A stretch of DNA of 64,000 nucleotides. Source: Patescibacteria group bacterium (GTDB lineage: Bacteria; Patescibacteriota; Patescibacteriia; Buchananbacterales; UBA6539). The translations under genes and the position numbers were made by a program. The stretch lies in assembly GCA_041649675.1 (NCBI GenBank), contig JBAZMQ010000006.1, positions 7,003 through 71,002 of the forward strand. Direction: 5' to 3'. Below are positions 23,085 through 56,255 of the stretch, one piece after another. Below the pieces are notes generated by a model. It made no database searches. It worked only from the letters and a program-made list of their open reading frames with translations, and was not told where the DNA came from. The first letter of the stretch is position 1. Every line of letters begins with the position of its first letter.

Positions 23085-23200
23085 GGCTCCCTCTCCCCTG
23101 GTGAAAGAGGGACTTAGTCTTCATATAGCGGGTGAGGGGGCTAAATTCATCAGTTTACCTCCCCCTCTCCTAGCCTCCCCCACAAGGGGGGGAGGAGGAA
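23085..23200. repeat. GC-rich palindrome cluster (CCCTCTCC family), locus A
   Basis: CCCTCT-N11-AGAGGG. GGGTGAGGGGG-N20-CCCCCTCTCC. CCTCCCCC-ACAA-GGGGGGGAGG. Confidence 0.7.
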
Positions 23201-23245
23201 ATCTTGGCGATTGCGCCTGCTTTAACTTACCTTCTTGCTGGTTTA

Positions 23246-23749
23246 TTATTTCATTTTAAATATCAACCAATTCTTTTTTTGGGGTGTAAATTGGGCCAAA
23301 ACATAAATCCCCTTTAATCTTTTTCCTTTTAATTTAAACTTCAAAGATTTTGCGGTGCTTTCCAATAATTCAAATTTACCTTTGTCCCAAATTTCTACCC
23401 GCCCAGCGCCGTAATTACCTTTAGGAATTACCCCAGAAAAATTAATATAGTCAACCGGATGATCTTCAACGGCCACGGCCAAATGTTTAATCCCAGACAC
23501 CGTGGGCAGACCTTTTGGCACGGCCCAAGATTTTAGCACAACCTGCCTACGCTCGCCTTCGGCGAGCTTCGGCAGGCGAGCCAGCTCTTTAAAAATATCT
23601 CCGGGTAACTCTAGACGGAAATCATAATGCAAATGACTGGCTTGATGTTTTTGAACCACAAAACGATTTAAACCTTTGGCCTTAGCTTGACCTTTTGGTT
23701 CTGGCGTTTTACTAAACTTTCTTTTTTGATTGTATTTTTTTAAAACCAC
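23246..23749 (-). CDS. stand-alone DNA ligase D 3'-phosphoesterase (LigD-PE) domain protein
   Basis: FVVQKHQASHLHYDFRLE signature of LigD phosphoesterase. Confidence 0.75.
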   Translation of the reverse strand: MVLKKYNQKRKFSKTPEPKGQAKAKGLNRFVVQKHQASHLHYDFRLELPGDIFKELARLPKLAEGERRQVVLKSWAVPKGLPTVSGIKHLAVAVEDHPVDYINFSGVIPKGNYGAGRVEIWDKGKFELLESTAKSLKFKLKGKRLKGIYVLAQFTPQKKNWLIFKMK

Positions 23750-23759
23750 AATGTTTTAA

Positions 23760-23950
23760 ATTAGAAAATCTAAGCACTAAATCCTAAACAAATCATAAAT
23801 CATAAATTTTAAATTCCAAACGTTTACTATTTATAATTTAAAAATTCGGATTTGTTTAGGATTTAGATATTCGGATTTAGAATTTAGTGCTTATTCTCTC
23901 CCTGCCTCCCTGTTCTCTGTTTTCTGTTCTCTGTTCTCTGTTTTCTGTAA
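23760..23950. repeat. complex AT-rich inverted repeat plus (TGTTCTC/TGTTTTC)n tandem heptamer tract
   Basis: CTAAGCACTAAATCCTAAACAAATC versus GATTTGTTTAGGATTTAG / GGATTTAGAATTTAGTGCTTA. About 5 tandem heptamers at 23915-23950. Confidence 0.7.
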
Positions 23951-24035
23951 ACTCCTATACTTTCATTGTAGTGCCACTGGCAAAAAAGGTCAAAAAAAAG
24001 AGACCAGTCAAATGCTTATAGCACTTAGCTGGTCA

Positions 24036-25133
24036 TTAGTTTACGGAAATGAACATATCCTCGCGCTGGAATTGCACCAAAGGCTTGCCCAGCATCTGGC
24101 CGCAGATCTTCAGGTAGATATTGGTAGTCTCCTCAACCGTCTCTTCGGGCCATTCCAGTTCCGAGACCCAATTGACGTGGGCTTCGTTCTCCGGATCGAG
24201 GTTGTCTATACCGATAATCTGCTCACCCTTGTGTTCACCCTTTTCGTAGAAAAACGGCGTAGGAACCTTGGCGCCGATAGCGCGGACATATTCTTTATCC
24301 GACGTTTCCAGGTTCGTACCGGCTGCCATTGCGGCATTATATTTCTCTTCCTCAATGAACCGCGATGAATCAGGGGTAAGAATCTCATCTGCCGCCACCA
24401 GCTCATTGTTGGCATTCAAACCAAACTCAAACTTGGTGTCAAAAAGGATGATTTTCTTAGATTTGGCATAGTCTGATCCCCGATCATACAACTTGAGCGA
24501 GAGATCCACTGCTTCCTGCGCCAACTGTTTTGGATCGCGGTTAATGCCATTTTCCCGCAGCCAGGCACCAAGAATCACCAGCATTTCGCCAAAAGTCAGA
24601 TGTTTATCGTGGCCGTCCTCGGATTTAGTCGTGGGGGTAGCAATTGCCGTAGATAATTTGCAACCCTTAGTGAGACCTTCAGGCAATAAAATGCCACAGA
24701 CTTCACGGGTCGCTTGGTAGCTTTTCCAACCGCTGCCACCCAAATAGCCGCGAACGACAAACTCGATGGGCAACATCCTGAGATTAAGAACAATCATGCC
24801 CCGCGATTGCAGGTCGGCGTTCCCACGCAATTCTTCGGGTAGATACTTGTCAATGGCCGCGCCATACGCCACGAGGTGGTTGGGGATATCCGCGAAGACA
24901 TTCAATAGCCAGTCGATGGTCATGGCGGTTAGGACCGAGCCCTTGAGCGAAATCAGCAGATTGAGGATGAAATCAAAAATGCTGATTCGGTCCGTGGCGA
25001 CGATAAGCCGCAAGTCGGGAAAACTAGGCAAGGCGTAGGAGTTGCGCACCTTGCCGACAGTCAATTCGTTGAGCTTTGTTGCCAGCAAGATGAATAGCGG
25101 CAACGCAAGCAGTCTGGGGTTAATCTTTTTCAT
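24036..25133 (-). CDS. purC: SAICAR synthetase (long form)
   Basis: FVVRGYLGGSGW and DTKFEFG motifs. GC-rich. Confidence 0.8.
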   Translation of the reverse strand: MKKINPRLLALPLFILLATKLNELTVGKVRNSYALPSFPDLRLIVATDRISIFDFILNLLISLKGSVLTAMTIDWLLNVFADIPNHLVAYGAAIDKYLPEELRGNADLQSRGMIVLNLRMLPIEFVVRGYLGGSGWKSYQATREVCGILLPEGLTKGCKLSTAIATPTTKSEDGHDKHLTFGEMLVILGAWLRENGINRDPKQLAQEAVDLSLKLYDRGSDYAKSKKIILFDTKFEFGLNANNELVAADEILTPDSSRFIEEEKYNAAMAAGTNLETSDKEYVRAIGAKVPTPFFYEKGEHKGEQIIGIDNLDPENEAHVNWVSELEWPEETVEETTNIYLKICGQMLGKPLVQFQREDMFISVN

Positions 25134-25175
25134 GGTTTCTTCTTTTCCTTCCTGTCTGTTGTAACTTGTTGTTTT

Positions 25176-25898
25176 CTATCCGAGAGCCGCAATGGCTTGG
25201 GTCCACGTTTGAAACGACGCTTCTTTGCCTTTGGCGTCGGCAATCCGTTGCCGTAAATCGTCAGGGATTTGGCCGTTAACCGCGAATTCGCAAGCGCGAG
25301 TAAAACCGTCGGGGCCAAAGTACTGTCCGGCTTCATCACCGCTAATAAGCAGATCCGCGCCGGGAAATTGCGTCATGGCCAGTAAGGCAGCCACATTTTT
25401 TCGCTGCTCATCATTCATTGCCGCCACAATCTCCTGGGGCGTCCGAGCGCTGTTGAGAACAACGTTGACTTCCGAGTCGGTTGTCGGCTCTTTTGGTTTC
25501 TCACACTTCAGAGCCACACCAATAACAATGATGTTTTTGGCGTGGAGTCCGTGGTACAAATAGCCTGCGGCTAAGCCGGGCAAAACTGCCAGCCAGCCAG
25601 CGGCCATGACCAAGACGTAATCGGTATCGAGATGGCTTTGCGCAATATTCGCCAGCCTGGTCAAAAACTCAAACAGGATGGCGAAGTTCCGATGGGCACT
25701 GATCGTGAAGTGCCCTGTGCCTCTGTGCTTGGGCTCAAGTACCAGCCGAACCGCCGGGTCCAGATCAATAATTTTCCCTGACTCGATCGCAGCCAAAGCT
25801 GCCGCCAGCGTTTTCCAACCGCCGCCTAACTGTTTGGCGTCGTTTGGCGAGCCAGCAATGGTTATAACTACCCTTTTTCTTGTTTCTTCAGTTGCCAC
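25176..25898 (-). CDS. purE: AIR carboxylase family (PurE-like) with C-terminal extension
   Basis: VVITIAGSPND (GSxSD-like) and AAGWLAVLPGLAAG...IIVIGVA (PurE core). GTG start. Confidence 0.65.
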   Translation of the reverse strand: MATEETRKRVVITIAGSPNDAKQLGGGWKTLAAALAAIESGKIIDLDPAVRLVLEPKHRGTGHFTISAHRNFAILFEFLTRLANIAQSHLDTDYVLVMAAGWLAVLPGLAAGYLYHGLHAKNIIVIGVALKCEKPKEPTTDSEVNVVLNSARTPQEIVAAMNDEQRKNVAALLAMTQFPGADLLISGDEAGQYFGPDGFTRACEFAVNGQIPDDLRQRIADAKGKEASFQTWTQAIAALG

Positions 25899-26126
25899 TG
25901 ATACTGTCCAACCTTTCTGGTTTTGTCCTTACGGACGCTTCGTTTTCTTTTCCATACCTCCCTTGTTTTGGGCGGTATCTTGCTTTGTCAATAAAATATA
26001 TTGTCAAAAAACAAAGTCTTTCCTCCTTGATCCGCCAAAGCCCGAGGGCAGAGGCAAACTCCTTGAAAAGACTAGTTTTGTACTCACAAATTAACAAAAA
26101 AATAATTAAATGTCAATGATCACCAA

Positions 26127-26214
26127 TTGTCATTCTGAAGAAGCGAAGCGGCTGAAAAATCCCAAAAGTTTAAGATTCTTCGCGCTAAAATATCGCTTAG
26201 AGCTCAGAATGACA
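26127..26214 (+). repeat. MITE-like structured repeat, copy 4
   Basis: TTGTCATTCTGAAG ... GAGCTCAGAATGACAG. An ATG lies 10 nt downstream (27-codon ORF). Confidence 0.75.
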
Positions 26215-26331
26215 GTAGGAGATATGCGCCTATTCGTTAATGTTATTTGGATAAAAAAAAGAAGCCAGTCAAACCCTCATGGATCTGACCGGCCGTTGAT
26301 TACTTAAACTTCCCTCCACCTCTTTCTTCGC

Positions 26332-28206
26332 CTAGTGCTTGGCAAAAAGCCGATCGGCGCTACTCAGGAAGGCGACAGAAAGCCCGGACTTGCTAAACAA
26401 AGCCTTGACGTTCTCGATCTCCTTGCCGTCAGCCGGCACCACGCCACCGATACAACCGGCGTCAATGAGCAATTCGGTTCCCTCTCGTCTATCCGATTGG
26501 GAAATCAGTGTGGCCATTTCGCCCAACAGCCTGATCGTCTCCAGTTGATTGCCAACCCGGTCAGCACTTCTCGCCTGAGCCAACAGCCACTCAATCTGGG
26601 CTAAGTCTACCGGCGGCTGTTCTCCGGTGGCATACGGGAAGAATGCATCCGAGGCAAAAACCGAACCTTGGGTGGTATGCCCAGCCCGTCTGGCCCGCTC
26701 AATGCAGAGCCTGACACAGGCAATCCGGTCTTGCTGGCCGCAGCCGAGACCAATTAACATCCGGTTCTTGGCCAAAGCCACGGTATTGCTGGAAGACCGA
26801 TAACAGGCCACCCAGGCAATCAGCAGATCTTCAAACCGGTCGTCGCTCAAAGGCACCCCGACCCAGGATTCAATCGTTTCCCTGGTCAGGATAAAACTTG
26901 GCGCCTTCTGTTTAAGGACATCACCGTTGCCAAGAAACTGCCACATCCATTCATTGGTTGGCATTTGCGGATCCAGTAATGCCAAATTGCTTAACAACCG
27001 GCGTTTCTCCCGCTTCCCTAGCTGCTCAACCGCGCCCGGGGAAAATGACGGAGCATAGATAATGTCCAGACCCCAGTTCTTCCGGCCAATCAACAGACTG
27101 AGTGGCGGGGACATCAATTCAACTCCAAGTTCATCGGTGATAGCGAAATTGGTAACTACTTCACCGCCCATTACCGCTACCTTGTCACCCGTCAAAGCTT
27201 TACGCAAAGCCGTTATGGGACTGGCCCAATCAACACCAATGCCGCAAACATTGCCGTGCTTTCCGGCAACAACAATGTACGGCACTTTACCGTAGACTCT
27301 TCGGTAAGCCTCGGCCAGAAAACGCAAAGCCCCGATCAGGCCGGCACCGTCTGCGATGCTGATGTAGCTAGGGTCGCCGGAAACGACTTGAAACTTGCTA
27401 GTTGCCAGCGGATCGTCGCTGTCGGTGGTAAACAGAAAAGCCGGGTCTTGGCGGTGATTTTCAGCATAGGCCAACTTTCGCGCCAACCGCATGAAGATGC
27501 CATCGAAATGACCGCCGCTGTGAAAACGGGCGGATTCCATCCGGTACCGAGACACGACGAAGTCAGCCTTGGCACAAAGGGCATTGCGGGTCTCTTCGGT
27601 AATCTCACCGTTATGCTCGCGCATCTGGTCAATCACCATCTGCCGGTCAGCCGGATCGCAAATCACAATTCGGCGACCCTTGGCTCCTTCGGAAACCATG
27701 GTCGGCCCGCCAATGTCAGTACCTTCGACAACCGACTCGGTTGTCGCGCCTTCCGCCTCGATTGCTCTCATTAGGGCATAGAAGTCGCAAACCACCATGT
27801 CGATGAAGGGGATACCAAACTTCGCCAGTTCCTTAAGATCAGAATCAATAGCCCGTGCGAGGAGTCCGGCTGATTTCGGCCGCGAAAGACTCACTACGCG
27901 ATGACCGAGCATCGGATTAGCATCAAGCAACTTTGCGACAGCTTTGGCTGAGAGCTTCCGACCACCCCTTTTGGTCTTAAAAGAAATACCGGCGCTAACA
28001 AATTCCTGAACCATGCTGCGCGTAATCATGTCAGCGATGTCTTGAACTTTGATACCGGCCGCCGCCAGATATTTGCACGTACCGGCCGAGCCAATAATGT
28101 GCCAGTTGCCCAATGCCTGCAACTGCCGAACAAAATCGACAATGTTAGGATTTTCCTTTTCAGTGACACTAATTAGCGCCACCCTCTGTCTCTGTTTTTC
28201 GGACAT
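26332..28206 (-). CDS. purH: bifunctional AICAR transformylase / IMP cyclohydrolase
   Basis: MGS domain ALISVTEK, DIGGPTMV, GCGQQDR and ASDAFFPYA motifs. GC-rich. Confidence 0.85.
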   Translation of the reverse strand: MSEKQRQRVALISVTEKENPNIVDFVRQLQALGNWHIIGSAGTCKYLAAAGIKVQDIADMITRSMVQEFVSAGISFKTKRGGRKLSAKAVAKLLDANPMLGHRVVSLSRPKSAGLLARAIDSDLKELAKFGIPFIDMVVCDFYALMRAIEAEGATTESVVEGTDIGGPTMVSEGAKGRRIVICDPADRQMVIDQMREHNGEITEETRNALCAKADFVVSRYRMESARFHSGGHFDGIFMRLARKLAYAENHRQDPAFLFTTDSDDPLATSKFQVVSGDPSYISIADGAGLIGALRFLAEAYRRVYGKVPYIVVAGKHGNVCGIGVDWASPITALRKALTGDKVAVMGGEVVTNFAITDELGVELMSPPLSLLIGRKNWGLDIIYAPSFSPGAVEQLGKREKRRLLSNLALLDPQMPTNEWMWQFLGNGDVLKQKAPSFILTRETIESWVGVPLSDDRFEDLLIAWVACYRSSSNTVALAKNRMLIGLGCGQQDRIACVRLCIERARRAGHTTQGSVFASDAFFPYATGEQPPVDLAQIEWLLAQARSADRVGNQLETIRLLGEMATLISQSDRREGTELLIDAGCIGGVVPADGKEIENVKALFSKSGLSVAFLSSADRLFAKH

Positions 28207-28234
28207 TGTTGTATCTTCCTCTCATTCTGTTTGA

Positions 28235-29821
28235 CTAAGCCGCGATAGGCTTGAGTCCGTTGGTTGTTTCCCGTCTTGCATCTTTAATCGCATCACCCAT
28301 GTAATGCGTTGGGTGCTTCAATAAATGAAGTTCCCGGCGCGTTAGGCCCTTCCAGGCGCGACGGAATTTCTGGTCGGTTTCATTAGCCTGCAGGTAAAGC
28401 TCAGCCGCGACACAAAGGTTTGGCGCTCCGGCCTTAACCCGGGCAATCAACTCCTTTTTGACAAAAGTATGAGCGCCGGCAAATCCCTCGCGCTGTAATG
28501 CATTATGAAGCAATTCCGCCAAAGACGCTGGCCCAAATGTCTGAACCCAGTGCAGACAGCGCTCTTCGTTGAAGGCTAGGACGCTCATCTGCCGCTTTAC
28601 GCTGTAAAGCTCCTGAGCAAAGTACTCCAAGGCTTCAATGAATGTCCTCATAACCGATGACCAACGCAAATCGCGTTGGAAATTGCTGCCGCGCGTCAAC
28701 CAAGGTCTTAAGGCGCAACTCAGTACGATTGTGTCTGCACCAATGGCATTTTCGGCCCGGATTGGATTAGCTTCTTTAGCCGCTCCGGCCGAAGAGGTGG
28801 AAGTGACATCCACCTCCTTTGAAGGAACAACCTCACCGAGTTCGGGCATATGCAAGATGCGAAGGTCTTCGCACAGACTCATCATCGGTCCGCCGATGGC
28901 AACAAGGTCACTATAAAAATGAACCGTATGATGAATCGGCGCAATCTGGGTGCTGCCTTTAGCGACTGGTAAGTCCAGAATGCTCATCAGTGTTCGTTCT
29001 GCTTTCTTGGGAATACCCACCGCTCGCTGGGATGCAGCCGTACCAACGAAACCGCAAAATTTGCCCGGCATAGCTAAAGCGGCCCGCTGCAGTTCAAGGG
29101 CACAATCGGTAAATTGCCGATGGGCACAAGCCAGGTAAAATCCGACGGTACCGGGTATGGCTGGCTGCAAGTGAGTGCGAAACATCTGGCGCGTCGTCAA
29201 ATATTCGTTGATCTTTGCCCGCCAGGTTTCATCAAGCGCCATCATCTTTGGCCACAGAACCAGACTGAACACGACTCGAAGCTGCAGGGCATATGCCGTT
29301 GAAATCGTATCATAGGAAGTTGCCGTATAGTGCAGCCACTTCCAAAGTCCTTTGGGCAAATACCGGCGCATCAAAGCCAACAACGCCAAGATGTCGTGAC
29401 CCATTCCCTTGGTCCCTTTCTTCTTGTCGCCGTATTCCAGCCGGTCTTGTTTGGTTGTAGTAACGTGCTTGAGCACATACAATAAACGTTCGGTGGTCAG
29501 AAGCCTGGCGTCTTTTTCGGGCATGACTCCGATGATGGCCAACGCCACCATCCAGAACCATTCCACGATGACCAACCAGGCCGCCCACTGGTCGTAACCA
29601 AGATACGGAACCAATTCAGGCTGCTGCTCTTCGTAGCGGTGATCCATATGCATCACTAAAACTCGCCGCGGATCCTCAGCCAGAACCGCCAGATAAGCAA
29701 TTGCGGCTGCCAACATCTCTCTTGCCTGTTTAATCGTCATACGCTTTGAACCTTTCTCCAATTTTTTTTCTATCAGCCATAGCCAAATGACCAATTCATC
29801 TAAACCTATATTTATTGTCAA
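28235..29821 (-). CDS. purB: fumarate-lyase superfamily, adenylosuccinate lyase-like
   Basis: SSAGAAKEANPIRAE resembles the GSSxMPxKxNP signature. About 100 aa N-terminal extension. GC-rich. Confidence 0.55.
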   Translation of the reverse strand: MTINIGLDELVIWLWLIEKKLEKGSKRMTIKQAREMLAAAIAYLAVLAEDPRRVLVMHMDHRYEEQQPELVPYLGYDQWAAWLVIVEWFWMVALAIIGVMPEKDARLLTTERLLYVLKHVTTTKQDRLEYGDKKKGTKGMGHDILALLALMRRYLPKGLWKWLHYTATSYDTISTAYALQLRVVFSLVLWPKMMALDETWRAKINEYLTTRQMFRTHLQPAIPGTVGFYLACAHRQFTDCALELQRAALAMPGKFCGFVGTAASQRAVGIPKKAERTLMSILDLPVAKGSTQIAPIHHTVHFYSDLVAIGGPMMSLCEDLRILHMPELGEVVPSKEVDVTSTSSAGAAKEANPIRAENAIGADTIVLSCALRPWLTRGSNFQRDLRWSSVMRTFIEALEYFAQELYSVKRQMSVLAFNEERCLHWVQTFGPASLAELLHNALQREGFAGAHTFVKKELIARVKAGAPNLCVAAELYLQANETDQKFRRAWKGLTRRELHLLKHPTHYMGDAIKDARRETTNGLKPIAA

Positions 29822-29904
29822 AAAACAAAGTCTTTCCCTCCCTGGAAAGACTGTTTTGTATTATTAATCTAACAAAATTGCCACTAAATGTCAAAATAAC
29901 CAAT

Positions 29905-30022
29905 TGTCATTCTGAGGGATCCACCCCCTGTCTACCAACAGACAGGCGGGGGTGGAGACCGAAGAATCTCAAACGTTTGGGATTCTTCGCACCCAGATAT
30001 TGCTTGGAGCTCAGAATGACAG
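29905..30022 (+). repeat. MITE-like structured repeat, copy 5
   Basis: TTGTCATTCTGAGG ... GAGCTCAGAATGACAG with inner palindrome CCACCCCCTGTC / GACAGGCGGGGGTGG and CGAAGAATC / GATTCTTCG. An ATG lies 10 nt downstream (15-codon ORF). Confidence 0.8.
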
Positions 30023-30106
30023 TACGAGATATGTACATATTCGTAATGCCATTCGCCTACAAAAAAAGACCAGCCTGAATATCTTTCAAGCTGGGATAAA
30101 AATCCA

Positions 30107-30742: not shown

Positions 30743-30920
30743 CTTTCCTCTCTCCTTATTTTCACCCAAATGGGTAACTTCCCTCAAGAAAAAGATCAAA
30801 ACTAAATTTAGATTAACAAGGAATAAAGCTAAAGTCAAACAATATCAGAGGCAAAAAGGTTGAAAAAACCCAGCCATTCTGCTAAACTTAGGAAGTTAAT
30901 TGTTAACTGTTAATTATTAT

Positions 30921-34029: not shown

Positions 34030-34051
34030 CTTTCCAAAAATTTAAAAAACA

Positions 34052-41914: not shown

Positions 41915-42000
41915 CCTTCCCTTTAACCTCTCCCCCAGCTTTTTACTGCTAATTCTCCCCCCTCTCCTTTAAAAGGAGAGGGGGTCGGGAGAGAGGTTAA
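41915..42000. repeat. GC-rich palindrome cluster (CCCTCTCC family), locus B, nested hairpins
   Basis: Inner CCCCTCTCC-TTTAAAA-GGAGAGGGG (perfect 9-bp stem). Outer AACCTCTCCC ... GGGAGAGAGGTT. Confidence 0.75.
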
Positions 42001-42359
42001 AAAGCCTTAAAATTTTTTTCAATACTCTGCAATACATCATCTATCTGACTTAGAATCTCTGGGTTAGTAAATCTTAAAAACTTAATCCCTAGTTGCTCAA
42101 CTTCCGTCTGCCTGGCTTTATCATAGGCCACAATTTTACTGTTTAGATGATAATTGCCATCTACCTCAATTGCCAGTTTTAATTTCGGACAATAAAAATC
42201 CAAAACATACTTATTAACGCTAAATTGCCTTTTGAATTTATAACCCTTCAACTTACGACTTCTTAAATAATACCAAAGGATATTTTCAGCCACTGTCGAA
42301 TTCTTTCTCAGAATTCTTCTTTTTTCCATTTCCGAGGTCTTATTAAAAATTAAAGTCAT
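41997..42359 (-). CDS. DUF559 (Vsr-like endonuclease fold) domain protein
   Basis: LDFYCPKLKLAIEVDGNYH core. Confidence 0.8.
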   Translation of the reverse strand: MTLIFNKTSEMEKRRILRKNSTVAENILWYYLRSRKLKGYKFKRQFSVNKYVLDFYCPKLKLAIEVDGNYHLNSKIVAYDKARQTEVEQLGIKFLRFTNPEILSQIDDVLQSIEKNFKAF

Positions 42360-42436
42360 AAAATTTTAAATAAAAGCGCCCACTAAGGGTGGGCGCTATG
42401 TTGATTAGTTTATTTTTAAGGAGTGCCTAAGCTACT

Positions 42437-46394: not shown

Positions 46395-49300
46395 TTATTG
46401 TCCTGTTACTTCTTTTTCTTCTTTAACAACATTTTTTTCAACTGGTTTGTTACCTGACATCAATTCAATGTTTAGGCATAAACCATTTAATTCGCGAAGT
46501 AATACGTTAAATGACTCGGGAATATTTAACTTTTTAATTGGTTCACCTTTAATAATTGATTCGTAAGCTTTTGAACGGCCGGAAACGTCATCGGATTTAA
46601 TAGTCAAAATTTCTTGCAGAGTATGAGCCGCACCATAGGCTTCAAGCGCCCAGACTTCCATTTCACCAAACCGCTGACCGCCGAATTGGGCTTTACCGCC
46701 TAATGGCTGCTGAGTGATTAAGGAGTATGGACCGATTGACCGCTGATGAATTTTATCTTCAACCATATGGTTTAATTTCATCATATAGATTTGGCCAACT
46801 GTTATCCGCTGTTCAAACTGCTCACCGCTGCGGCCATCATAAACATTCATTTTTCCATCAGCACTGTAGCCAGCTCTGACTAATTCGGATTTGATCGTTT
46901 CTTCGGATACACCATCCAAAACCGGACTCATTACTTTATAACCGAGTTTAGCCGCGGCTAAGCCTAAATGAGTTTCCAAAATTTGACCAAGGTTCATACG
47001 AGAAACAACGCCCAATGGACTTAAAATTATATCAACCGGCATACCATCGCTTAAAAATGGCATATCTTCAACCGGTAAAACAATTGAAACCACACCTTTG
47101 TTTCCGTGCCGGCCAGCCATTTTATCACCAACTTGAATTTTTCTTAAATTAGCAATTGACACCTGATACATTTTAATTACGCCGGAAGGCAATTTATCAC
47201 CATTTTCCCGGCTAAATATTTTGACATCAACAACTTTACCTTTCTCACCATGTTCCAGGTACAAAGAACTGTCACGGACGTCTCTGGCTTTTTCACCAAA
47301 GATGGCCCGCAGCAATTTTTCTTCGGCTGAAAGTTCAGTTTCACCTTTAGGCGTAATTTTACCAACTAAAATATCACCCGAAGAAACAGAAGCCCCAATT
47401 CGGACCACGCCTTCGGAATCTAAATCTTTTAATTTTTCTTCACCAATATTAGGAATATCGGAAGTGACAATTTCTGGCCCTAATTTGGTATCACGAACTT
47501 CAACTTGGAAGTCCTCTATATAGATAGAAGTAAAAGCATCTTTTTGGACTAATCTTTCGGATAAAATAATAGCATCTTCGTAGTTATAACCTTCCCAAGG
47601 CATAAAAGCCACCAAAATGTTTTGGCCCAAGGCCAATTCACCTTTATCGCTAGCTGGGCCATCGGCTAAAACATCACCCTTTTTAATCACTTCACCCTTA
47701 TCAACTACTGGCCGTTGGTTAATACAAGTTGAGGCATTGGAACGGACAAATTTATTTAAACGATAACTTTTAACCTCGCCATTTTTATCTAAAACATCAA
47801 TTCGGTCGGATTGAACTTCTGATATTTTTCCATCAGTTTTGGAAACGATGACGTGGCCGGAATCTTGAGCTGATTTGGCTTCCAAGCCGGTACCGACAAT
47901 CGGCGAGCTTGGTTTAATAACTGGTACGGCTTGGCGCTGCATGTTTGAGCCCATTAAAGCACGAACCGCGTCGTCATGCTCCAAAAATGGAATTAAAGAA
48001 GTGGCCACCGAAACGATTTGGTTAGGCGCTACATCCATATAATCAATGAAATTAACGTGTTCAATTTCCGGTTCCCCATATTTTCTTACTTCAGCTCTTT
48101 CCACCATAAAATAGCCTTTCTCGTCAATTGGCGTGGTGGCAGCAGTCGTAATGGAATTTTCGCTTTGGAAAGCAGTCAAATAAACAACCTGTTCGGTTAC
48201 TCTTGGTTTAACCGGTATTTTTTTAAGTTCAGCAATTTTTTCTAAATCTTTGGCCAGTTTGGCAGAAATAGTTTCACCCGCTTTAGCAATGATTGAATTA
48301 TTGCCTGGATTTAAAATATCAACTCGGGCAATTTCACCTTCAGTTTCAGCGGCCAAGTTGGCAATATCGTGTTTTACTTTTCTGAAAGGCGTTTCAATAA
48401 AACCATATTCATTAATTCTGGCATAGCAAGCCAAATGACCGACTAAGCCAATGTTTGGACCTTCAGGCGTGGCAATTGGACAGATCCGGCCGTAGTGAGT
48501 CGGATGTACATCACGAACATCAAAGCCAGCCCGTTCGCGAGAAAGACCGCCTGGACCCATGGCTGATAAACGGCGCTTATGCTCAAGTTCGGCTAACGGA
48601 TTGGTTTGATCCATAAACTGCGACAGCTGAGAAGACATGAAAAATTCTTTAACTGAACCAATGACTGGCCGCGCATTGATTAAACGGTTAGGCGTGATTT
48701 CAGCAATATCCAAAGTACTCATGCGATCTTTGGCAATTCTTTCCATCCGAGCCAAGCCAATCCGGAATTTATTTTGAACTAATTCACCAATGGCTCTGAC
48801 CCGCCGATTACCCAAATGATCAATATCATCAGGATCTTTTTGCGTAATATTCAAACGAATAATTTCTGAGACCACTTCCGCTAAATCCTGAACCAACAAA
48901 ACCCGATTTTCTTTGGTGATTGGCAAATCGTGGTTAAAGCGCTGATTAATTTTATAACGGCCAACTTTACCAAAATCATAACGTTCAAAATTGAAAAACA
49001 TGGCATAGATTAAAGACTTGGCATTATCAGCCGTGGCTAAATCACCGGGCCGAATTCTTTTGTAAACTTCAATTAAGCCATCAGCTTCGTTGGTGGAAAC
49101 ATCTTTGGCTAAAGTATTTTTGATATAAGAAATTTCTGGATGAGTATCAACGTCTTTAAAAATTTCTAAAATTTCATCGTCGGTTGGATAACCAAAAATT
49201 CTAAACAAAGAAGTAACCGCAATTTTTCTTTTCCGGTCAATTTTTACCCAAATTACGTTATTAATATCGGTTTCTAATTCCAACCAAGAACCACGGTTAG

Positions 49301-49772
49301 GAATGATTTTAGCACCATAATAGCGCTTCTCGCCGTAAACTTCAGAGGTAAAGAAAATCCCAGCTGATCTAATTAACTGGGAAACAACAACTCTTTCAAT
49401 GCCATTGATAATAAAAGTTCCCCTTTCGGTCATCAAAGGAAAATCACCGAGATAAACTTCTTGTTCGAGTTTTTTATTCAATTTTCGGTTAACCAATTTG
49501 GCTGTGACGCGCAAAGGCGCTTCATAACTTAAATTTTTAATTCGGCTGGTGACTTCATCAAATTTTGGTTCATCAAGATAATATTTACCAAAATATAATT
49601 CAAAATCACGACCGATAAAATCTTTAATTGGTGATACTTCTTCAAATAATTCTTGCAAACCGTGCTGCAAAAACCAGTTGTAAGAGTCTTTCTGGGCTTC
49701 AATCAGATCCGGTATAGGTACTGCTTCTTTAAGAATGGTAAAAACTTGTCGGTTTGGATTTTTTGAAGCCAT
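46395..49772 (-). CDS. rpoB: DNA-directed RNA polymerase subunit beta
   Basis: 1125 aa. Rif-region and catalytic motifs. Immediately upstream of rpoC. Confidence 0.95.
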
Positions 49773-50196
49773 AAGTATGTATTAATCTAAGATTAGTAAA
49801 TATTTTATAATTATAGATAGACAACAAAAATGTCTCCCAGCCTTCATTCTCAGGATGCGAGTTTAACGATTTCTTTAATTAAGTTTTAGAAAAAAAGAAG
49901 CCCACTACCTATTTTTTTAAAAATGAAACGTGAATAAGACACTGTTTTACAATAGCGGGAAGCTAAAAAATCAATGTTGATTGAATTGATTTAACCTAGC
50001 TATATTAGCAAATTATTAAAACTTTGTCAATGTTTTTATGTCCCAGATTAACTCTTAAGACAAAAGGTGCTAATCTAAGCCAAAAAATGGATTAAACCTA
50101 AACAGTTATCCACAATTTATCAAGAATTTGGCTTAGATGATTTTTTAAATAAAAACCTGCCAAATTCAAGTTGACCTTAAATCAAATTGCTCAGAT

Positions 50197-51516
50197 TTAT
50201 TTTTTTAGATTCTTTAATTCTTCTCTAACCACCTGCCGGTCATCCCAAGGAATTAATTTACCATCTTTGACCGCCATAACCGGTTCGCAACCTTTGCCGG
50301 AAACCAAAACCAAATCGCCCGCTTGAGCCAAGCTCAAAGCTTTACTTATTCCTTGGCGCCGGTCCAAAATACTAAATAAATTTTTATTATTAACTTTTCC
50401 GGCTTTTATTGCGCCGGCGGCTACCTGATCAATAATTCGCTGCGGATCTTCATCGTAAGGATCTTCATTGGTAACAATTACATAATCGGCTAATTTAGCA
50501 GCAAGCTCACCTAAAACCGGCCGCCGCCAGCAATCCCGGCCGCCGCCGCAAGAACCTAAAACATGAATAACTTTTTTATGATCAATTAATTTTACCATTT
50601 CATATAAAGCTAAAACAGCTTTGGGCTCGTAAGCATAATCAACAATGATTTTAAACGGCTGACCAGCTTCAATAAATTCAATTCGGCCTGGCACGCCTTG
50701 AATAGCTGATAAAATTTCAGACATTTTAGACAAACTCAAGCCTTGGGATAAACCAAGAGTAACAGTTGCCAGGGTATTATAAATATTATGACGGCCAAAA
50801 AGTTTTAGATTAAACGGCTGACCAGCAACTGTAAATTCAACACCCGATCCGGAGATTACTTCGTTTTCGGCTCGCACTACCCGGCCTTGATCGCTGGACT
50901 GTTGGGTCAGAGTAAAACCAAATTTGTCTTGGGCCCAATTAGCCAAAAAATCTTTAGCGTGTTCATCATCCAAATTAGCAATAATGGTTTTTTTAATTTT
51001 TTGGTTTGCCAAAATTTTTATCGTCTCTTCTTTGAGTTTAGCAAAAAGTTTTAGTTTCGCTTTTTTGTAATTTTCAAAATTGCCATGAGCTTCAATATGC
51101 TCAGGGTATAAATTAGTAAAAATTAAAATATCATAATTAATCCCTAAATGCCGGAATTGCTCAATCCCCTGAGAACTGGTTTCAATAATTGCATACTGAC
51201 AATTTGCTTTAGTCATCTGTTTAATCAACTTCTGCAAAGCAAAGCGACCAATCATAGTCATCTTTTTGTCGTTTAACCATTCTTTTTTATCAACTTTAAA
51301 GAGAAAAGTTGAGGCCGCGCCAACCCTAAAACCGGCATTTTGTAGCATTTTGGCAATTAAATAAACTACCGTTGATTTACCCGAAGTGCCGGTAACCCCA
51401 ATGACAATTAACTTGTCCGATGGACTGCCGTAAAAAAAATTAGCCGCTATGGCGAGGGAATAGTGGTAGAGTTTTAATAATGGTTGAGGAATAAATTGTT
51501 TTAAGCGGTTTAACAT
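50197..51516 (-). CDS. Mur ligase family protein (MurE-like)
   Basis: GVTGTSGKST P-loop. Mur ligase middle and C-terminal domains. Confidence 0.7.
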   Translation of the reverse strand: MLNRLKQFIPQPLLKLYHYSLAIAANFFYGSPSDKLIVIGVTGTSGKSTVVYLIAKMLQNAGFRVGAASTFLFKVDKKEWLNDKKMTMIGRFALQKLIKQMTKANCQYAIIETSSQGIEQFRHLGINYDILIFTNLYPEHIEAHGNFENYKKAKLKLFAKLKEETIKILANQKIKKTIIANLDDEHAKDFLANWAQDKFGFTLTQQSSDQGRVVRAENEVISGSGVEFTVAGQPFNLKLFGRHNIYNTLATVTLGLSQGLSLSKMSEILSAIQGVPGRIEFIEAGQPFKIIVDYAYEPKAVLALYEMVKLIDHKKVIHVLGSCGGGRDCWRRPVLGELAAKLADYVIVTNEDPYDEDPQRIIDQVAAGAIKAGKVNNKNLFSILDRRQGISKALSLAQAGDLVLVSGKGCEPVMAVKDGKLIPWDDRQVVREELKNLKK

Positions 51517-51590
51517 TGATGAATTATGAATTATGAATTATGAATCGGGAGAGTTGCCATAATTCCTGATTCATAATTCCTAATTCTAGA
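51517..51590. repeat. AT-rich inverted repeat (GAATTAT x3.5 ... ATTCATAATTCCTAATTC)
   Basis: Left arm GAATTATGAATTATGAATTATGAATC is complementary to right arm GATTCATAATTCCTAATTC. Confidence 0.65.
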
Positions 51591-52193
51591 TTATTTTTTG
51601 CCTAAAATCTTCAATGCTTCGCGAATACACGTACTAGCATCATTACTCTTTTTATCAATCTGACTAATTACTTGCTTGGCTTCGGCAGCTGAATAACCAA
51701 AGCCCACCAAGGCATCAAAGATATCAGTATCCAAACTGACCTCATTTTTCTCACCAGCAATTTTTGGCCGCACAGTTAAACTTTGAACTTTATCTTTTAA
51801 ACCAAGAACTATTTTTTCCGCTGTCTTGGAAGTTAAGCCTGACATTTTAGTTAAGAGAGTCGGATTATTTTCCAAAATCGCTTGCTGAACTTCAGCCATA
51901 GTGGTTTTTTCCAAAATCGCCATGGCCGATTTGGGGCCGATTTGGGGCACGTCCAAAAGCAACGTAAAAAAAGTTTTGTCCGCTGGATTTAAAAAACCAT
52001 ATAAATCCATGGCATTTTCCGAAACGGCCAAATAAGTATAAACCGTTATTTTTTCGCCTTCTTTTACTTTTTTCAAATTACTGGCGGGGCTATAAACTTT
52101 GTAGCCCACGCCAGAAACATCAACAATAAAATAAGCGTCTTTGCGCAGCTCGGAAGTCTTGTAGCTAATTGTACCAGCAAGAGAGGCAATCAT
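51591..52193 (-). CDS. ruvA: Holliday junction branch-migration protein RuvA
   Basis: N-terminal OB. Two HhH domains. A C-terminal RuvB-binding domain. Confidence 0.85.
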   Translation of the reverse strand: MIASLAGTISYKTSELRKDAYFIVDVSGVGYKVYSPASNLKKVKEGEKITVYTYLAVSENAMDLYGFLNPADKTFFTLLLDVPQIGPKSAMAILEKTTMAEVQQAILENNPTLLTKMSGLTSKTAEKIVLGLKDKVQSLTVRPKIAGEKNEVSLDTDIFDALVGFGYSAAEAKQVISQIDKKSNDASTCIREALKILGKK

Positions 52194-52207
52194 TGAACAG
52201 AATAATG

Positions 52208-52290
52208 AATAGTGAATTAAGAATTATGAATTACGAATGATTTAGAGACCTTAATTCCTAATTCTTAATTCCTAATTCTTAATTACATTT
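52208..52290. repeat. AT-rich inverted repeat, second locus (GAATTAAGAATTATGAATTACGAAT ... TTAATTCCTAATTCTTAATTCCTAATTCTTAATTAC)
   Basis: Same word family as 51517-51590. Confidence 0.6.
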
Positions 52291-52421
52291 TACCGCAAAA
52301 ATCTAACTTTTACCAATATTTTTAAATTGACAAAAACTCCTTATTTAGCTAAGATTTTAAAGATCTGAAAAATCGTGCAACCTACAACTAAAACAAAGTT
52401 ATCACATTGGAGGAAGAGTCT

Positions 52422-53759
52422 ATGAAAGTAATTGTTGTAATTTTTGGAGCAAGTAGCGGATTGACTGTTGGCTATTTCGCCGGTGGCAAGTTCTGTGTGC
52501 TGGTTAAAGCCAAAATACCTTTCAGGCAAGATGCAAATGGCATCAAGTATTGGCCGTTAGCTTGGTTGAAAAAACAATTGGCAGCGGTGATGGAATATGC
52601 CCAGCCCGGCGACATTGTTGCCCCGGCTACTTGGGGCGCTGATTATGCCGCCTTTGCTGACGACAGTGCAGTCTTTGGCGGAATGAATCTTGGCTGGGCC
52701 AAGTTCTATGCTTCGGTGCCTGAGCATTACTTGAAACAAGTAACGGATATTATTCCCGCAGAAGAACTTTATTTGAGAACTGGCGGCGCCAACGTAGACT
52801 GGTTTCAGATGTACAGCCAGCTAAAATGCGACCTGGGCTTGCAGGCCAATGTGCTGTTGGCTAAAACCACCACCGGATTGATCCCGATGGCCGATGTCAT
52901 CACCTACCTTTTGACCGGCCAAAAAGGTCATGACCAAACGATGTTAAAAAGCTATGGCTTAACTGAGCCTGGCTGGCGGAAAATTTATCTCCAACTCTTT
53001 GGGTCAGAAATTGCAAACAAAATTGCGCCCTGGCCAGTGTTCCCTGAAAATCAACTGCTGACCAGACCAAACGGCGTAAGAGTCTGCCCAACAACTCACG
53101 ACTCAGTCCCTTCCCGGAGAGTTGGTTTTACCCTTTGCCCCTGGGACTTATGGACCGGAACTTGGGGCGGCGATGCCTTAGATCTAACCGCATTCCCTAA
53201 CGTGACTCCGTCAAAAAAATCATTTGGCGCCAACGTTGCCTTTGAAGGTATTGGTAATTCAGCCGCGGCAATCACCAACTTCGGCATGTTTGGAACCATC
53301 TGGGATGCCATCAAGACAGAAGGCGGTTGGCCAAGTTATGATGCAATAGCTCAATCAGCGCTGGAATTTTTAGGCGCTTCAGAGATTAGCATGATAATGG
53401 GAAATAATCCCACGCCAAACCTGACCCGTATGATGGAGCATCTGGAAAAAACATTTAGCGCCGGTAACTGGCCGCTAAAAGCCGCCTATTTCATCACAGT
53501 CGTTGCCCAAATCTGCAAGAATGGGTTGGAGGGCACTGCCAAACTTTTTGACCTGCCAAAGCCGGTTTCAGTTGCCGTCACTGGCGGCTGGACGGAAAAC
53601 GAGGCATTCCTTGCTCAGCTTGAAAATCTGGGCATAGCGCCGCTCATTCCACCTTTGGCTACCGAAGCAACCCATGCCGGAGTAGCGGCTCAAGCGTTGG
53701 TTATGGCTGATGAAGCCAACACTTTTGCCGAAGCGCTGGAATTGCTAGCCAGCATGTAA
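52422..53759 (+). CDS. FGGY-family carbohydrate kinase (rhamnulokinase-like)
   Basis: N-terminal GASSG ASKHA phosphate-1 motif and a C-terminal VTGGW...A actin-fold motif. GC-rich. RBS GGAGGAAG before the ATG at 52422. Confidence 0.6.
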   Translation: MKVIVVIFGASSGLTVGYFAGGKFCVLVKAKIPFRQDANGIKYWPLAWLKKQLAAVMEYAQPGDIVAPATWGADYAAFADDSAVFGGMNLGWAKFYASVPEHYLKQVTDIIPAEELYLRTGGANVDWFQMYSQLKCDLGLQANVLLAKTTTGLIPMADVITYLLTGQKGHDQTMLKSYGLTEPGWRKIYLQLFGSEIANKIAPWPVFPENQLLTRPNGVRVCPTTHDSVPSRRVGFTLCPWDLWTGTWGGDALDLTAFPNVTPSKKSFGANVAFEGIGNSAAAITNFGMFGTIWDAIKTEGGWPSYDAIAQSALEFLGASEISMIMGNNPTPNLTRMMEHLEKTFSAGNWPLKAAYFITVVAQICKNGLEGTAKLFDLPKPVSVAVTGGWTENEAFLAQLENLGIAPLIPPLATEATHAGVAAQALVMADEANTFAEALELLASM

Positions 53760-53828
53760 TTGTTATTTGTATCCTACTGCTAAACCCGGTAGGATTTTTT
53801 TATTACAAATTAACTTTTATCTATTTCT

Positions 53829-53888
53829 AAATTCTTGGCACCGCGCCAGGAAAGTTCATAAATTTGTTTCATAACCTGCATGCCGGGC
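53829..53888 (-). pseudogene. duplicated 3' fragment of the paralogous TrmB-family gene (encodes MKQIYELSWRGAKNLEIDKS)
   Basis: About 38 nt nearly identical to the 3' end of CDS 55392..56138. Confidence 0.5.
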
Positions 53889-54685
53889 TAGTGACCTTGG
53901 TTTAAATTATTGTTACTAATTTTTTTAGTTTTAGAGTAATTCCAAAAAAACTCAAACAGTGACTTTAACATCTCGGCGAACTCCTGACTTTCAATAATGA
54001 AACCAACATTTTCTTTACGGGATGAAATAAACGCCACCTTATTTCCATAAATCATAAAACCCATTGAGAAATTTATTTCTTTGGGAAGAAATCTAACTTC
54101 TCTTTTAAATTGAGGGCTGGATTCCATGTAGGGAAAATCCCTGAGATCAATTTTTTGTTTTATTGGCCAAAGCGCTCTAACGGAAACATTTTTTTCAACT
54201 CTTTTTTTCTGAGTGTATTCAAAAAATTCAGAAGTTAATATTTCTATCATTGGTTTTGGCGGCCAAAAAGTAACAAATTCACCTGCACTATAAACGATAA
54301 CATCTCGCATTATATTCTTAAGCGCGTCTTTGCCTTCATACATTTGAAATTTCGGACTGATGAATTTTGAAATAATATTTTTTTCCAACATTGGAATCAT
54401 AGCCTGATAATTCTTTTGGCTCTGAGTTATATTGTCAATCATTTGTTGAAAAATAAAATCGACCTTCTTGGGCGGTTGAGCTTGAAATATTTTGACGCTA
54501 AGATTGGATGATTGTGTGACCAAGCCCTTTTCCTGCAATCTTTTAAGAAAGCCATATAGTGACGGGCGGGGCTTTCCGATTTTTTTTGCCAGCTTACCAA
54601 CAGAAATTGGACCAAATTCTAAAAGAGCCAGATATGTTTCTGCTTCCTCTTTTCCAATCCCTAATGAATTAAATATATTTTCCAT
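53888..54685 (-). CDS. TrmB-family sugar-responsive transcriptional regulator, paralog 1
   Basis: N-terminal wHTH (ETYLALLEFGPISVGKLAKK...LKRLQEKGLV) and a C-terminal sensor domain. Confidence 0.7.
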   Translation of the reverse strand: MENIFNSLGIGKEEAETYLALLEFGPISVGKLAKKIGKPRPSLYGFLKRLQEKGLVTQSSNLSVKIFQAQPPKKVDFIFQQMIDNITQSQKNYQAMIPMLEKNIISKFISPKFQMYEGKDALKNIMRDVIVYSAGEFVTFWPPKPMIEILTSEFFEYTQKKRVEKNVSVRALWPIKQKIDLRDFPYMESSPQFKREVRFLPKEINFSMGFMIYGNKVAFISSRKENVGFIIESQEFAEMLKSLFEFFWNYSKTKKISNNNLNQGH

Positions 54686-54888
54686 TTGACTGACTGTTGT
54701 CGCGGTACCACAACACTATTGTTTATTAAATTATATCGTAATAATATAACTAAATTGGGGATTATGTCAATATTGTTGTTTAAATGCAACAGTAATTATA
54801 TTGACTATCTTCTTATGAACTTTATCACAAAAGAATAATGAATTTGCGGAGAAATGTCCTATTTATCTAAATGTTAAAAGGAGAAAAC

Positions 54889-55308
54889 ATGAATACGATA
54901 GAACCGAAACCGATCAGAACCCTAGTCTTAAAAGCCCATGAAATTTTTGTGGCTTCAGAGAGATTTATTGTCGGCGATAGTGAAGGACTTCGCATCTCTG
55001 AAATCACGGATTTATGGCGCCAGGTTTACATGAAGGTAATTGAGAGGAATATACCCGAAAAAACCGCGGAAGTATATCCAAATGGTTGCAAAAAGAAAGA
55101 TACGGGAATCAATTTAGCTCATGTGTATGATGTTCTTCTTGCTCAGGGTCATGGCCAAGACGGTTTACTAGAAATTGATGGCACCCGGCGGCCGTGTCAT
55201 GTCACCGGAGTTAACAATTTTATGCTCATTGTCAGCTGGGAAAATGATGGCTGGAAGCTGGATGCCAGGGCAGTAGTATCTGTTTTGGAAATTTTTATGT
55301 CTCGATAA
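54889..55308 (+). CDS. hypothetical protein (139 aa)
   Basis: RBS AAAAGGAG lies 5 nt before the ATG at 54889. No family recognised. Confidence 0.45.
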   Translation: MNTIEPKPIRTLVLKAHEIFVASERFIVGDSEGLRISEITDLWRQVYMKVIERNIPEKTAEVYPNGCKKKDTGINLAHVYDVLLAQGHGQDGLLEIDGTRRPCHVTGVNNFMLIVSWENDGWKLDARAVVSVLEIFMSR

Positions 55309-55355
55309 CATATCTTTACCGTCCATCACACCTAGCGCTTAATTTCGAGATTCAC

Positions 55356-55394
55356 GGGACGAAATTGATTTCCATTGATTTCGCCCTTTTTTTA
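55356..55394 (+). terminator. terminator hairpin GGGACGAAA-loop-TTTCGCCC + T8
   Basis: Read from the sequence. Same stem family as 57147 and 59568. Confidence 0.65.
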
Positions 55395-56138
55395 TTTTAT
55401 TTCCATTGTTTTGGCGCCGCGCCAGGAAAGTTCATAAATTTGTTTCATGGCTTGGGCAATCGCTTTACTTTCAATAATGACAGACATACTTTCGGCATAA
55501 TTCATGAAGGCAATTTTATTATTATAGATATTAACTTCAATTTGGGAAGACAACATTTCTTTGGGCACAATAATGGTTTGTGAAAGTTCAGCTTCATCCT
55601 TTTTTTTATGGCGAGTTTCCCAAAACGAACCTTTTTCGGCAATACGCTTGGCGTGAATATTTAAAGCCACGCGTTTTCCCAAATAAACATAATCTTTATC
55701 CACATAAGGATTTGCAAAATAAGCATTGGTATTCCATTCCAAAATTTCCGGCGGCCTTTCAGCCAAGGTATCATCATAAACTTTTTGGATAGCATAGTCA
55801 CCTTCATAAAATAAAATTTTTGGTTTGATTTCACTCTTATTATAAACCGCTTCCAGCTGGGGCAGGGCTTTTTTTAGTTTGGCCTGGAGTTCGCTTAATA
55901 AATACAAAAGTTTATCCGGGCTTTCAGCCAAAAATCGGCTCTTGCCTTTGACTTTGGTTTTAGCCACCACGCCGCGACTAACCAAAGCGCTTAAAACAGA
56001 ATAAGTGGTAGTGCGCTGCAGTCCGGCTTTTTGGGCAATATTTTGAGCCGAGGCTAAACCCGATTCCAAGGCGGCTAAATAGACTTTAGATTCATTTTGA
56101 GAAAAGCCTAATTGGCTTAATAAACGGTCAAATTGCAT
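55392..56138 (-). CDS. TrmB-family transcriptional regulator, paralog 2
   Basis: N-terminal wHTH (ESKVYLAALESGLASAQNIAQKAG...LSALVSRGVV). Similar C-terminal domain. Confidence 0.7.
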   Translation of the reverse strand: MQFDRLLSQLGFSQNESKVYLAALESGLASAQNIAQKAGLQRTTTYSVLSALVSRGVVAKTKVKGKSRFLAESPDKLLYLLSELQAKLKKALPQLEAVYNKSEIKPKILFYEGDYAIQKVYDDTLAERPPEILEWNTNAYFANPYVDKDYVYLGKRVALNIHAKRIAEKGSFWETRHKKKDEAELSQTIIVPKEMLSSQIEVNIYNNKIAFMNYAESMSVIIESKAIAQAMKQIYELSWRGAKTMEIK

Positions 56139-56160
56139 AGTTTTATGAAGTCATTGTTTT

Positions 56161-56255
56161 GAATTCCCTCTCCGAAAACGGAGAGGGTTAGGGTGAGGTT
56201 ACGAAGTCAGTTACCTCATCCCTAGCCCTTCTCCCAAATGGGAGAAGGGAATTCT
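56161..56255. repeat. GC-rich palindrome cluster (CCCTCTCC family), locus C, bounded by GAATTCCC / GGGAATTC
   Basis: CCCTCTCC-GAAAAC-GGAGAGGG. GGGTGAGGT ... ACCTCATCCC. CCCTTCTCCC-AAAT-GGGAGAAGGG. Confidence 0.75.

Follow-up and report, generated by a model that had tools for sequence, protein, structure and literature searches.

Triplex-type BoxC/PIT/TM_ECO palindromes in a Patescibacteria contig and their association with DUF559 endonuclease genes

A stretch of 64,000 nt from contig JBAZMQ010000006.1 of a Patescibacteria group bacterium, hereafter the window, contains three intergenic loci with clusters of GC-rich palindromes, here called A (23085-23200), B (41915-42000) and C (56161-56255). 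A preliminary description of the window had placed palindrome clusters at these coordinates, and they are indeed present there. Locus A is located between a LigD_N gene and a co-directional 127-aa open reading frame (ORF), locus B between a gene for a DUF559 endonuclease and ftsK, and locus C between the divergent trmB gene and a 209-aa ORF. The relatives of the window FtsK are Buchananbacteria- and Falkowbacteria-like. We show that the three loci are copies of the BoxC/PIT/TM_ECO intrastrand-triplex repeat of Escherichia coli, here in a bacterium of the candidate phyla radiation (CPR), and that the association of such repeats with DUF559 genes is strong, replicated and oriented. Both the identity with the E. 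coli repeat and the neighbouring DUF559 gene had been overlooked.

Each unit of the repeat consists of a pyrimidine arm of 8-12 nt, a loop of 3-6 nt, the complementary purine arm, a linker of 2-3 nt and a G/T-rich mirror segment, in which a G stands opposite each G of the purine arm and an A or T opposite each A, in accordance with G.G-C and A/T.A-T triads. With this layout, one strand alone could double back on itself twice and form a purine-motif triple helix. A scan of the window for perfect hairpins yielded four that have only pyrimidines in the 5' arm and only purines in the 3' arm (pyrimidine-first hairpins), for which the mirror scores were 8/9 (C-left), 9/10 (C-right), 11/12 (B) and 7/8 (A-right) and the linkers TTA and CTA at locus C, TC at B and CTA at A. 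Locus C is an intact inverted pair of units, locus A a decayed pair and locus B a unit fused to the 3' end of the DUF559 gene (Table 1). In the predicted fold of locus C the mirror segments of the two units form base pairs, and GAATTC/GAATTC closes the whole element. Locus B comprises one 12-bp hairpin flanked on both sides by mirror segments, one of which overlaps the stop codon of the DUF559 gene while the distal one, 21 nt away, is a perfect 12/12 mirror of the purine arm. The statement that each locus holds 2-3 perfect hairpins was slightly generous for A and B, where some stems are imperfect. The sharing of motifs between A and C was borne out: GGGTGAGG occurs on the + strand at 23130 and 56191 only, and CAGTT(T)ACCTC is common to both (CAGTTACCTC at 56208 and, with one T more, CAGTTTACCTC at 23151). 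Aligning the three loci as wholes gave no information; their relation is readable only unit by unit.

Earlier work on the BoxC/PIT repeat is reportedly due to Bachellier in the 1990s and to Hoyne and Maher in 2000 and 2002. The motif, formerly named BoxC and later PIT, has been defined as TM_ECO, CCCTCNCCC-N3-6-GGGNGAGGG-N3-GGGNGAGGG (Holder et al. 2015, PMC4666352). According to the same study, the 23 copies in E. coli MG1655 are all located between genes and include five inverted pairs, oligonucleotides of the motif form a purine-motif intrastrand triplex in vitro as seen by circular dichroism and nuclear magnetic resonance, and the TM_ECO (TM) loci are unusually variable among strains; neither a function shared by the flanking genes nor an association with mobile elements was found (PMC4666352). 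The published census covered 262 proteobacterial genomes, and similar G/C-rich motifs were noted in cyanobacteria (PMC4666352).

The left unit of locus C differs from the TM_ECO consensus by three mismatches, all at the ends of the arms, and no match was obtained in 100 shuffles. The whole locus C pair is colinear, arm by arm, with the inverted pair between hrpB and mrcB of MG1655, including the type-A TTA linker, and loci A and B are arm variants of the motif (CCTCCCCC and CCCCCTCTCCTT). The window elements and TM_ECO agree in the order of parts (C-rich arm, loop, G-rich arm, 3-nt linker, second G-rich mirror arm), in the core CCCTCTCC / GGAGAGGG / GGGTGAGG with its TTA linker, in a strictly intergenic location, in inverted pairs (here C and A) with a spacer of 12-16 nt, and in a presence that varies between relatives. 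They differ in arm length, which is 8 nt at C and 12 nt at B instead of 9, and in the host, a metagenome-assembled genome of the Patescibacteria with about 40% GC. A related unit, in the trmB leader of the relative L092, carries a G.A arm mismatch, CCCTCGCCCC against GGGGAGAGGG, as do 13 of the 23 units of E. coli K-12; the "mm" types of TM_ECO have this mismatch, as has the commonest E. coli type. A conserved mismatch in the hairpin is of note because the candidate enzyme discussed below is related to the mismatch endonuclease Vsr. The near-identical core in E. coli and the G.A mismatch shared by a relative argue for horizontal spread rather than convergence, and the loci extend a known yet unexplained repeat family into the CPR.

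Table 1. Repeat units, hairpins and associated genes in the window (positions are those of the 64,000-nt stretch).
Feature	Position	Strand	Sequence or description
Locus A, decayed left unit	23088-23140	+	TCCCTCT, 11-nt loop, AGAGGGA, 17-nt insertion, mirror GGGTGAGGGGG
Locus A, imperfect stem	23088-23112		TCCCTCT..AGAGGGA
Locus A, spacer	23141-23157		CTAAATTCATCAGTTTA; TCAGTT(T)-ACCTC common with locus C
Locus A, right unit	23158-23195	-	CCTCCCCC-CCTTGT-GGGGGAGG-CTA-GGAGAGGGGGAGG
Locus A, perfect hairpin	23174-23195		CCTCCCCC/GGGGGAGG
Locus B, distal segment	41925-41936	-	GGGGGAGAGGTT; pairs with 41987-41998 as outer stem
Locus B, outer imperfect stem	41925-41936 with 41987-41998		AACCTCTCCCCC with GGGAGAGAGGTT
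Locus B, core unit	41958-41998	+	CCCCCTCTCCTT, loop TAA, AAGGAGAGGGGG, linker TC, mirror GGGAGAGAGGTT
Locus B, perfect hairpin	41958-41984		CCCCCTCTCCTT/AAGGAGAGGGGG, 12 bp
DUF559 (Vsr-like PD-(D/E)XK) endonuclease gene	41997-42359	-	Pfam DUF559, 1e-31
Locus C, whole	56161-56254		intact inverted "face-to-face" unit pair with ends GAATTC...GAATTC; folds as three-hairpin junction
Locus C, left unit	56166-56199	+	CCCTCTCCG, loop AAAA, CGGAGAGGG, linker TTA, mirror GGGTGAGGT
Locus C, left perfect hairpin	56166-56187		CCCTCTCCG/CGGAGAGGG
Locus C, spacer	56200-56212		13 nt, TACGAAGTCAGTT; same position as the DUF559 gene in gene-bearing cassettes
Locus C, right unit	56213-56249	-	CCCTTCTCCC-ATTT-GGGAGAAGGG-CTA-GGGATGAGGT
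Locus C, right perfect hairpin	56226-56249		CCCTTCTCCC/GGGAGAAGGG
Hairpins flanking the RAYT gene	61313-61344 and 61901-61940		GTTAAG-CCAG-CTTAAC; TAACAGCC-TTTA-GGCTGTTA; TAACACGC-TAAA-GCGTGTTA; TTAGCCAG-CTAAAGA-CTGGCTAA

The hairpins are far in excess of chance expectation. Five pyrimidine-first hairpins whose stems measure 8 bp or more were found in the window, against a mean of 0.02 and a maximum of 1 in 200 first-order Markov simulations. Since a hairpin reads alike on both strands, the pyrimidine-first order is a genuine property and not an artefact of orientation. Folding with tools that consider Watson-Crick pairs only gave structures far better than those of shuffled sequences for locus C (-32.9 kcal/mol, z = -8.7) and locus B (z = -4.8 to -5.2), whereas the decayed locus A folded no better than its shuffles (z = -0.9 to -1.5). 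The heptamer CCTCTCC alone was not significantly enriched in the window (8 found, 3.1 expected), and its occurrence at 1041 was rejected as a copy of the repeat, being a ribosome-binding site. Neither Rfam at gathering thresholds nor a tRNA scan gave a match in the window, which is also the part of the source genome that our repeat census covered.

Comparisons with related genomes showed that the elements are insertions into spacers and that these insertions are polymorphic. In the relatives L084-L087, the FtsK proteins of which are 70-72% identical to that of the window, ftsK comes directly after rpoC. These relatives retain both the rpoC terminator (tcaacatagcgcccacc...) and the region of the ftsK promoter (ttatgttaaaatata), while the approximately 470 nt that hold the DUF559 gene and locus B are absent from the rpoC-ftsK spacer of relatives including L084 and L086. 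No triplex unit was found at this empty site of the relatives; in the window the DUF559 gene and the unit have been inserted together. The L084 spacer contains a different GC-rich direct repeat at 2810-2890, in which ACCGCCGCCACGG(A/G)C(A/G)GCG..AGAAG occurs twice.

Locus C is located downstream of a promoter-like site for trmB (TTGACG-17-TACAAT, 56361-56333) and would therefore sit in the 5' leader of the trmB mRNA. An operator-like box, tgactaaag...ttcgtcat, is shared near the ATG by 27 trmB relatives, and locus C is inserted between this box and the trmB start codon. The corresponding leader is an empty site in L091, the closest trmB relative (83% identity), contains the single unit CCCCTCGCCCCG-TCTCAAA-CGGGGAGAGGGG-TT-GGGGGTGAGGGG in L092 (76%), a triplex unit in opposite orientation in L117 and an unrelated palindrome in L090 (83%). 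The latter is inserted about 130 nt upstream of trmB (gtcattccgcacttgc...gatgcggaat and attcccgcttccgcgggaatgac) and points to another family of small mobile repeats in these CPR genomes. The short stretch from box to ATG holds different small palindromic inserts in different lineages. Inverted TGACGAA/TTCGTCA motifs recur at 56270-56430 of the window, for example at 56354-56371, and upstream of trmB in L090-L118; together with the tgactaaag..ttcgtcat box they are probably the TrmB operator. A triplex-type hairpin is located about 40-130 nt past the trmB stop codon in L096, L101, L102 and L118, which marks another recurrent insertion site. Altogether, the related CPR loci contained about 15 further triplex units in 187 kb.

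The DUF559 protein encoded beside locus B has the conserved D-F...E-x-D-G..H residues and is 43% identical to YcjD of E. coli. Its database counterpart (P0001, 100% identical) is called as a protein of 110 aa that begins at Met11, with the start at 42329. The DUF559 profile matches PDB 3hrl (4e-31), the homing endonuclease I-Bth0305I (3r3p, 1e-5) and the homing-endonuclease model of PADLOC.

To quantify the association, we used 80 genomic loci that encode homologues of the window protein (45-58% identity) and come from more than 10 phyla, among them Ignavibacteriota, Cyanobacteria, several CPR groups, Bacteroidota, Nitrospirota, Gammaproteobacteria and Planctomycetota. The remaining ORFs of 100 aa or longer in these loci served for comparison. 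Detection was strict, counting perfect pyrimidine-first hairpins within 150 nt, and the statistics ignore kinship among the loci. Such a hairpin was present near the DUF559 stop codon in 33/79 loci and near 4/456 of the other ORFs (Fisher p = 2e-26), and near the start codon in 43/77 loci compared with 6/437 (p = 7e-35). Purine-first hairpins, used as a control, were found in 2/79 and 2/77 loci at stop and start, respectively. At least one flanking hairpin accompanied 53 of 75 DUF559 genes. The nearest upstream unit had its mirror segment toward the gene in 31 cases and away from it in 11 (p = 0.003), at a median of 34 nt from the ATG, while the nearest downstream unit was located at a median of 15 nt from the stop codon and often overlapped it. 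Despite divergent arm sequences, 155 of 185 hairpins followed the mirror rule. The corresponding counts were 34 under a direct-copy rule and 16 when the template was shuffled.

A typical cassette is arranged like a solo pair, except that the gene stands where the spacer would be. Both arm types found at locus C, CCCTCTCC..GGGTGAGG and CCCTTCTCC..GGGATGAGG, flank DUF559 genes in three loci of Ignavibacteriaceae (L017, L027 and L046). Among the 120 database homologues, many have C-terminal tails such as PPRPSLSQREGV or PHPSPLLSKERG that represent the translation of a hairpin, and tandem DUF559 remnants were seen in L008, L012, L019 and E. coli. In viral contigs, all 18 hairpins in 445 kb fell within 4 loci with a full-length DUF559 gene, and most of them adjoined that gene. 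No clean cassette boundaries could be read from contigs that carry identical DUF559 proteins; some of these contigs diverge inside a hairpin, which in these short metagenome contigs is indistinguishable from assembly breaks at the repeat. In two cyanobacterial contigs rich in GCGATCGC (L217 and L218) a gene for a transposase of the IS5 family of insertion sequences (IS) lies upstream of an identical DUF559 gene and ends exactly at CTAG, that is, at linker plus mirror segment, with the hairpin replaced. The CTA/TTA+G linker fits the YTAR target that IS5-family elements prefer. Our literature search on DUF559 and YcjD found no link to BoxC, PIT or triplex motifs, but its coverage was incomplete and an earlier description may exist elsewhere; the link is drawn here and not in the TM_ECO paper (PMC4666352).

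The E. coli gene ycjD, which was found in 3378 of 5426 complete genomes, ends within the hairpin CCCCCTCGCTC-TTTCA-GGGAGAGGG and is followed by a duplicated C-terminal DUF559 fragment and then by TM_ECO #9. The region between fabI and sapF (L002, L124, L125) is occupied alternatively by ycjD with BoxC units or by the eefRABC efflux operon, and homology to K-12 stops about 35 nt from TM_ECO #9. Strains lacking ycjD were rejected as empty-site alleles since the eefRABC operon replaces the region.

On these grounds, we consider it probable that the three loci belong to one family of small, non-coding selfish palindromes of the BoxC/PIT/TM_ECO type with a DUF559 nuclease as partner, and that they are not kept for the benefit of the host. 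The elements are most likely the non-coding ends, or the empty forms, of a DUF559 cassette, in a relationship like that of repetitive extragenic palindromic (REP) sequences and the REP-associated tyrosine transposase (RAYT). In the proposed scheme, the partner enzyme would be the Vsr-like DUF559 endonuclease rather than a RAYT, and a complete cassette would read [pyrimidine arm, purine arm, mirror] - DUF559 gene - [mirror', pyrimidine arm, purine arm]. Solo pairs would be the cassette minus the gene, either as empty target sites or as gene-less derivatives. The nuclease may nick or cut the folded motif, after which host recombination or homing, with the units of about 35 bp as homology, could carry copies of the element or of the gene from one site to another. 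The units would depend on DUF559 as REP sequences do on RAYT, and the system would amount to a structure-specific nuclease gene framed by, and propagated through, triplex-capable palindromes. The broader proposition, that BoxC/PIT repeats and the very widespread YcjD-like, Vsr-fold DUF559 proteins are the two halves of one selfish system in more than 10 phyla and some viral contigs, seems to us about evenly balanced.

The preliminary description had called the clusters REP-like and offered terminators, RAYT substrates or recombination sites as their nature. In a broad sense the term REP-like is apt, as these are short, dispersed, intergenic palindromic repeats with polymorphic insertion, and a role as recombination sites is plausible; the RAYT and terminator suggestions were not supported. 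It is highly improbable that the RAYT at 61342-61890 mobilises these elements as its REP sequences. The ORF encodes a true RAYT (NCBIfam REP_Tyr_transpos, 84.3 bits with a cut-off of 80) only 5 kb from locus C, and the elements are dispersed intergenic palindromes, but the hairpins that flank it on both sides differ in stem, loop and composition, being AT-richer and having nothing in common with the triplex units, and no triplex unit flanks the gene. These hairpins are found nowhere else in the window, and the RAYT with its own hairpins looks like a separate REP/RAYT unit. In addition, no RAYT was found within 5 kb of the 80 DUF559/triplex loci (600 kb), and the units lack the GTAG or CGTC tag as defined in PMC3733652. 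Structures that serve the host, for example as intrinsic terminators, mRNA stabilisers or regulatory leaders, are an unlikely explanation as well, if less remote. Loci A and B do follow genes, and the very stable locus C lies past a promoter-like site. However, no T-run follows the stems, locus C is situated between divergent genes and inside a leader, and no terminator was called at any of the three loci while the rpoC terminator at 42375-42397 was called. The elements are moreover absent at the orthologous sites of the closest relatives and match no Rfam family, and E. coli PIT elements reportedly have neither promoter nor terminator activity (Hoyne and Maher 2002, as summarised in PMC4666352).

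A more serious competitor, to which we give a minor though real chance, is that the BoxC/PIT-type repeats are not mobilised by DUF559 and have arisen or spread by another route, such as slippage in replication or repair or a different enzyme, the units being fragile, recombination-prone hot spots in which DUF559 genes and insertion sequences preferentially land. This would agree with the variability of TM loci in E. coli (PMC4666352), with the several unrelated small inserts gathered in the trmB leader, with the IS5-family element whose position in one of the units coincides with the CTAG linker and with the ycjD/eefRABC breakpoint so close to TM #9. Against it, hairpins beside DUF559 are 80-90 times more frequent than beside other ORFs of the same loci, and besides the one IS5 case no other gene class turned up, although the neighbouring genes were not surveyed. 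The tight spacing to the ATG and the fixed orientation also speak against it, as do the joint insertion of gene and unit between rpoC and ftsK, where relatives have no unit, and the identical pair of arm types that accompanies DUF559 in another phylum.

Several observations weigh against a partnership of the repeats with DUF559. The window gene has a unit on its downstream side only, and tblastn searches detected no DUF559 remnants at loci A and C. In 22 of 75 loci a strict hairpin was present on neither side, the orientation of the nearest downstream unit (21 toward the gene, 13 away) was not significant, and the 80 loci represent one DUF559 subfamily with a best match of 58% identity. No pair of occupied and empty alleles with exact boundaries or target duplications was found. 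On the supporting side, in a spread sample of E. coli, 37 genomes with ycjD had 12-27 TM sites (median 20) and 23 genomes without it 1-17 (median 3; p = 1e-9), but this correlation is confounded by phylogeny, and O157:H7 retains about 13 TM sites with no ycjD, as the hot-spot alternative would allow. The TM_ECO triplex was undetectable in vivo (PMC4666352). Both the action of DUF559 on the motif and the route by which copies spread are inferred. To our knowledge, a lone PD-(D/E)XK nuclease is not a known transposase, which leaves the spread to new loci unexplained.

The proposed DUF559 system resembles REP/REPIN-RAYT systems in that a short palindromic repeat stands in inverted orientation on either side of a single-copy gene for an enzyme and is also scattered through intergenic DNA, singly or in inverted pairs, as non-autonomous selfish DNA. 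It differs in that the proposed enzyme is a Vsr-like PD-(D/E)XK nuclease and not an HUH Y1 transposase, in that the units combine a homopurine and a homopyrimidine arm with a third, mirror segment and lack a GTAG/CGTC tag, and in that the RAYT of the window has other repeats. The free-standing homing endonuclease I-Bth0305I (EDxHD family, with a Vsr-like domain) has a related catalytic domain, and homing endonuclease genes are likewise small selfish nuclease genes inside a bipartite DNA site with a patchy distribution across phyla. The layout fits that of a homing site, as the units face the DUF559 gene in the way that they face the spacer in solo pairs. Classical homing targets are, however, unique conserved gene sequences, whereas the target here would be a multi-copy repeat. 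Similarities to miniature inverted-repeat transposable elements include the size of about 95 nt, terminal inverted repeats, insertion polymorphism and a structure when transcribed. Here, in contrast, no target-site duplication is definable since the relatives are too divergent, no DDE transposase parent of these elements is known, and each terminal repeat consists of a hairpin plus a mirror segment.

The association with DUF559 provides a candidate enzyme for a repeat that has been an orphan for 30 years and a candidate substrate for a large family defined by a domain of unknown function. If true, the partnership would account for TM loci as hot spots of genome variation, and the joint system would be a nuclease-based counterpart of REP/RAYT.

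Two further features of the window were recorded. The segments 6001-8000 and 24001-30000 have a GC content of about 50-52%, compared with 37-42% elsewhere, and their ORFs overlap long antisense ORFs, as is expected for GC-rich coding DNA; the DNA may have been acquired recently, or may carry genes that are highly expressed or atypical in other ways. Finally, two near-identical terminator-like elements at 57148-57194 and 59568-59607, GGGCGAAAT...ATTTCGCCC followed by TCTTTTCCCC, are located after + strand genes that end at 57113 and 59562.

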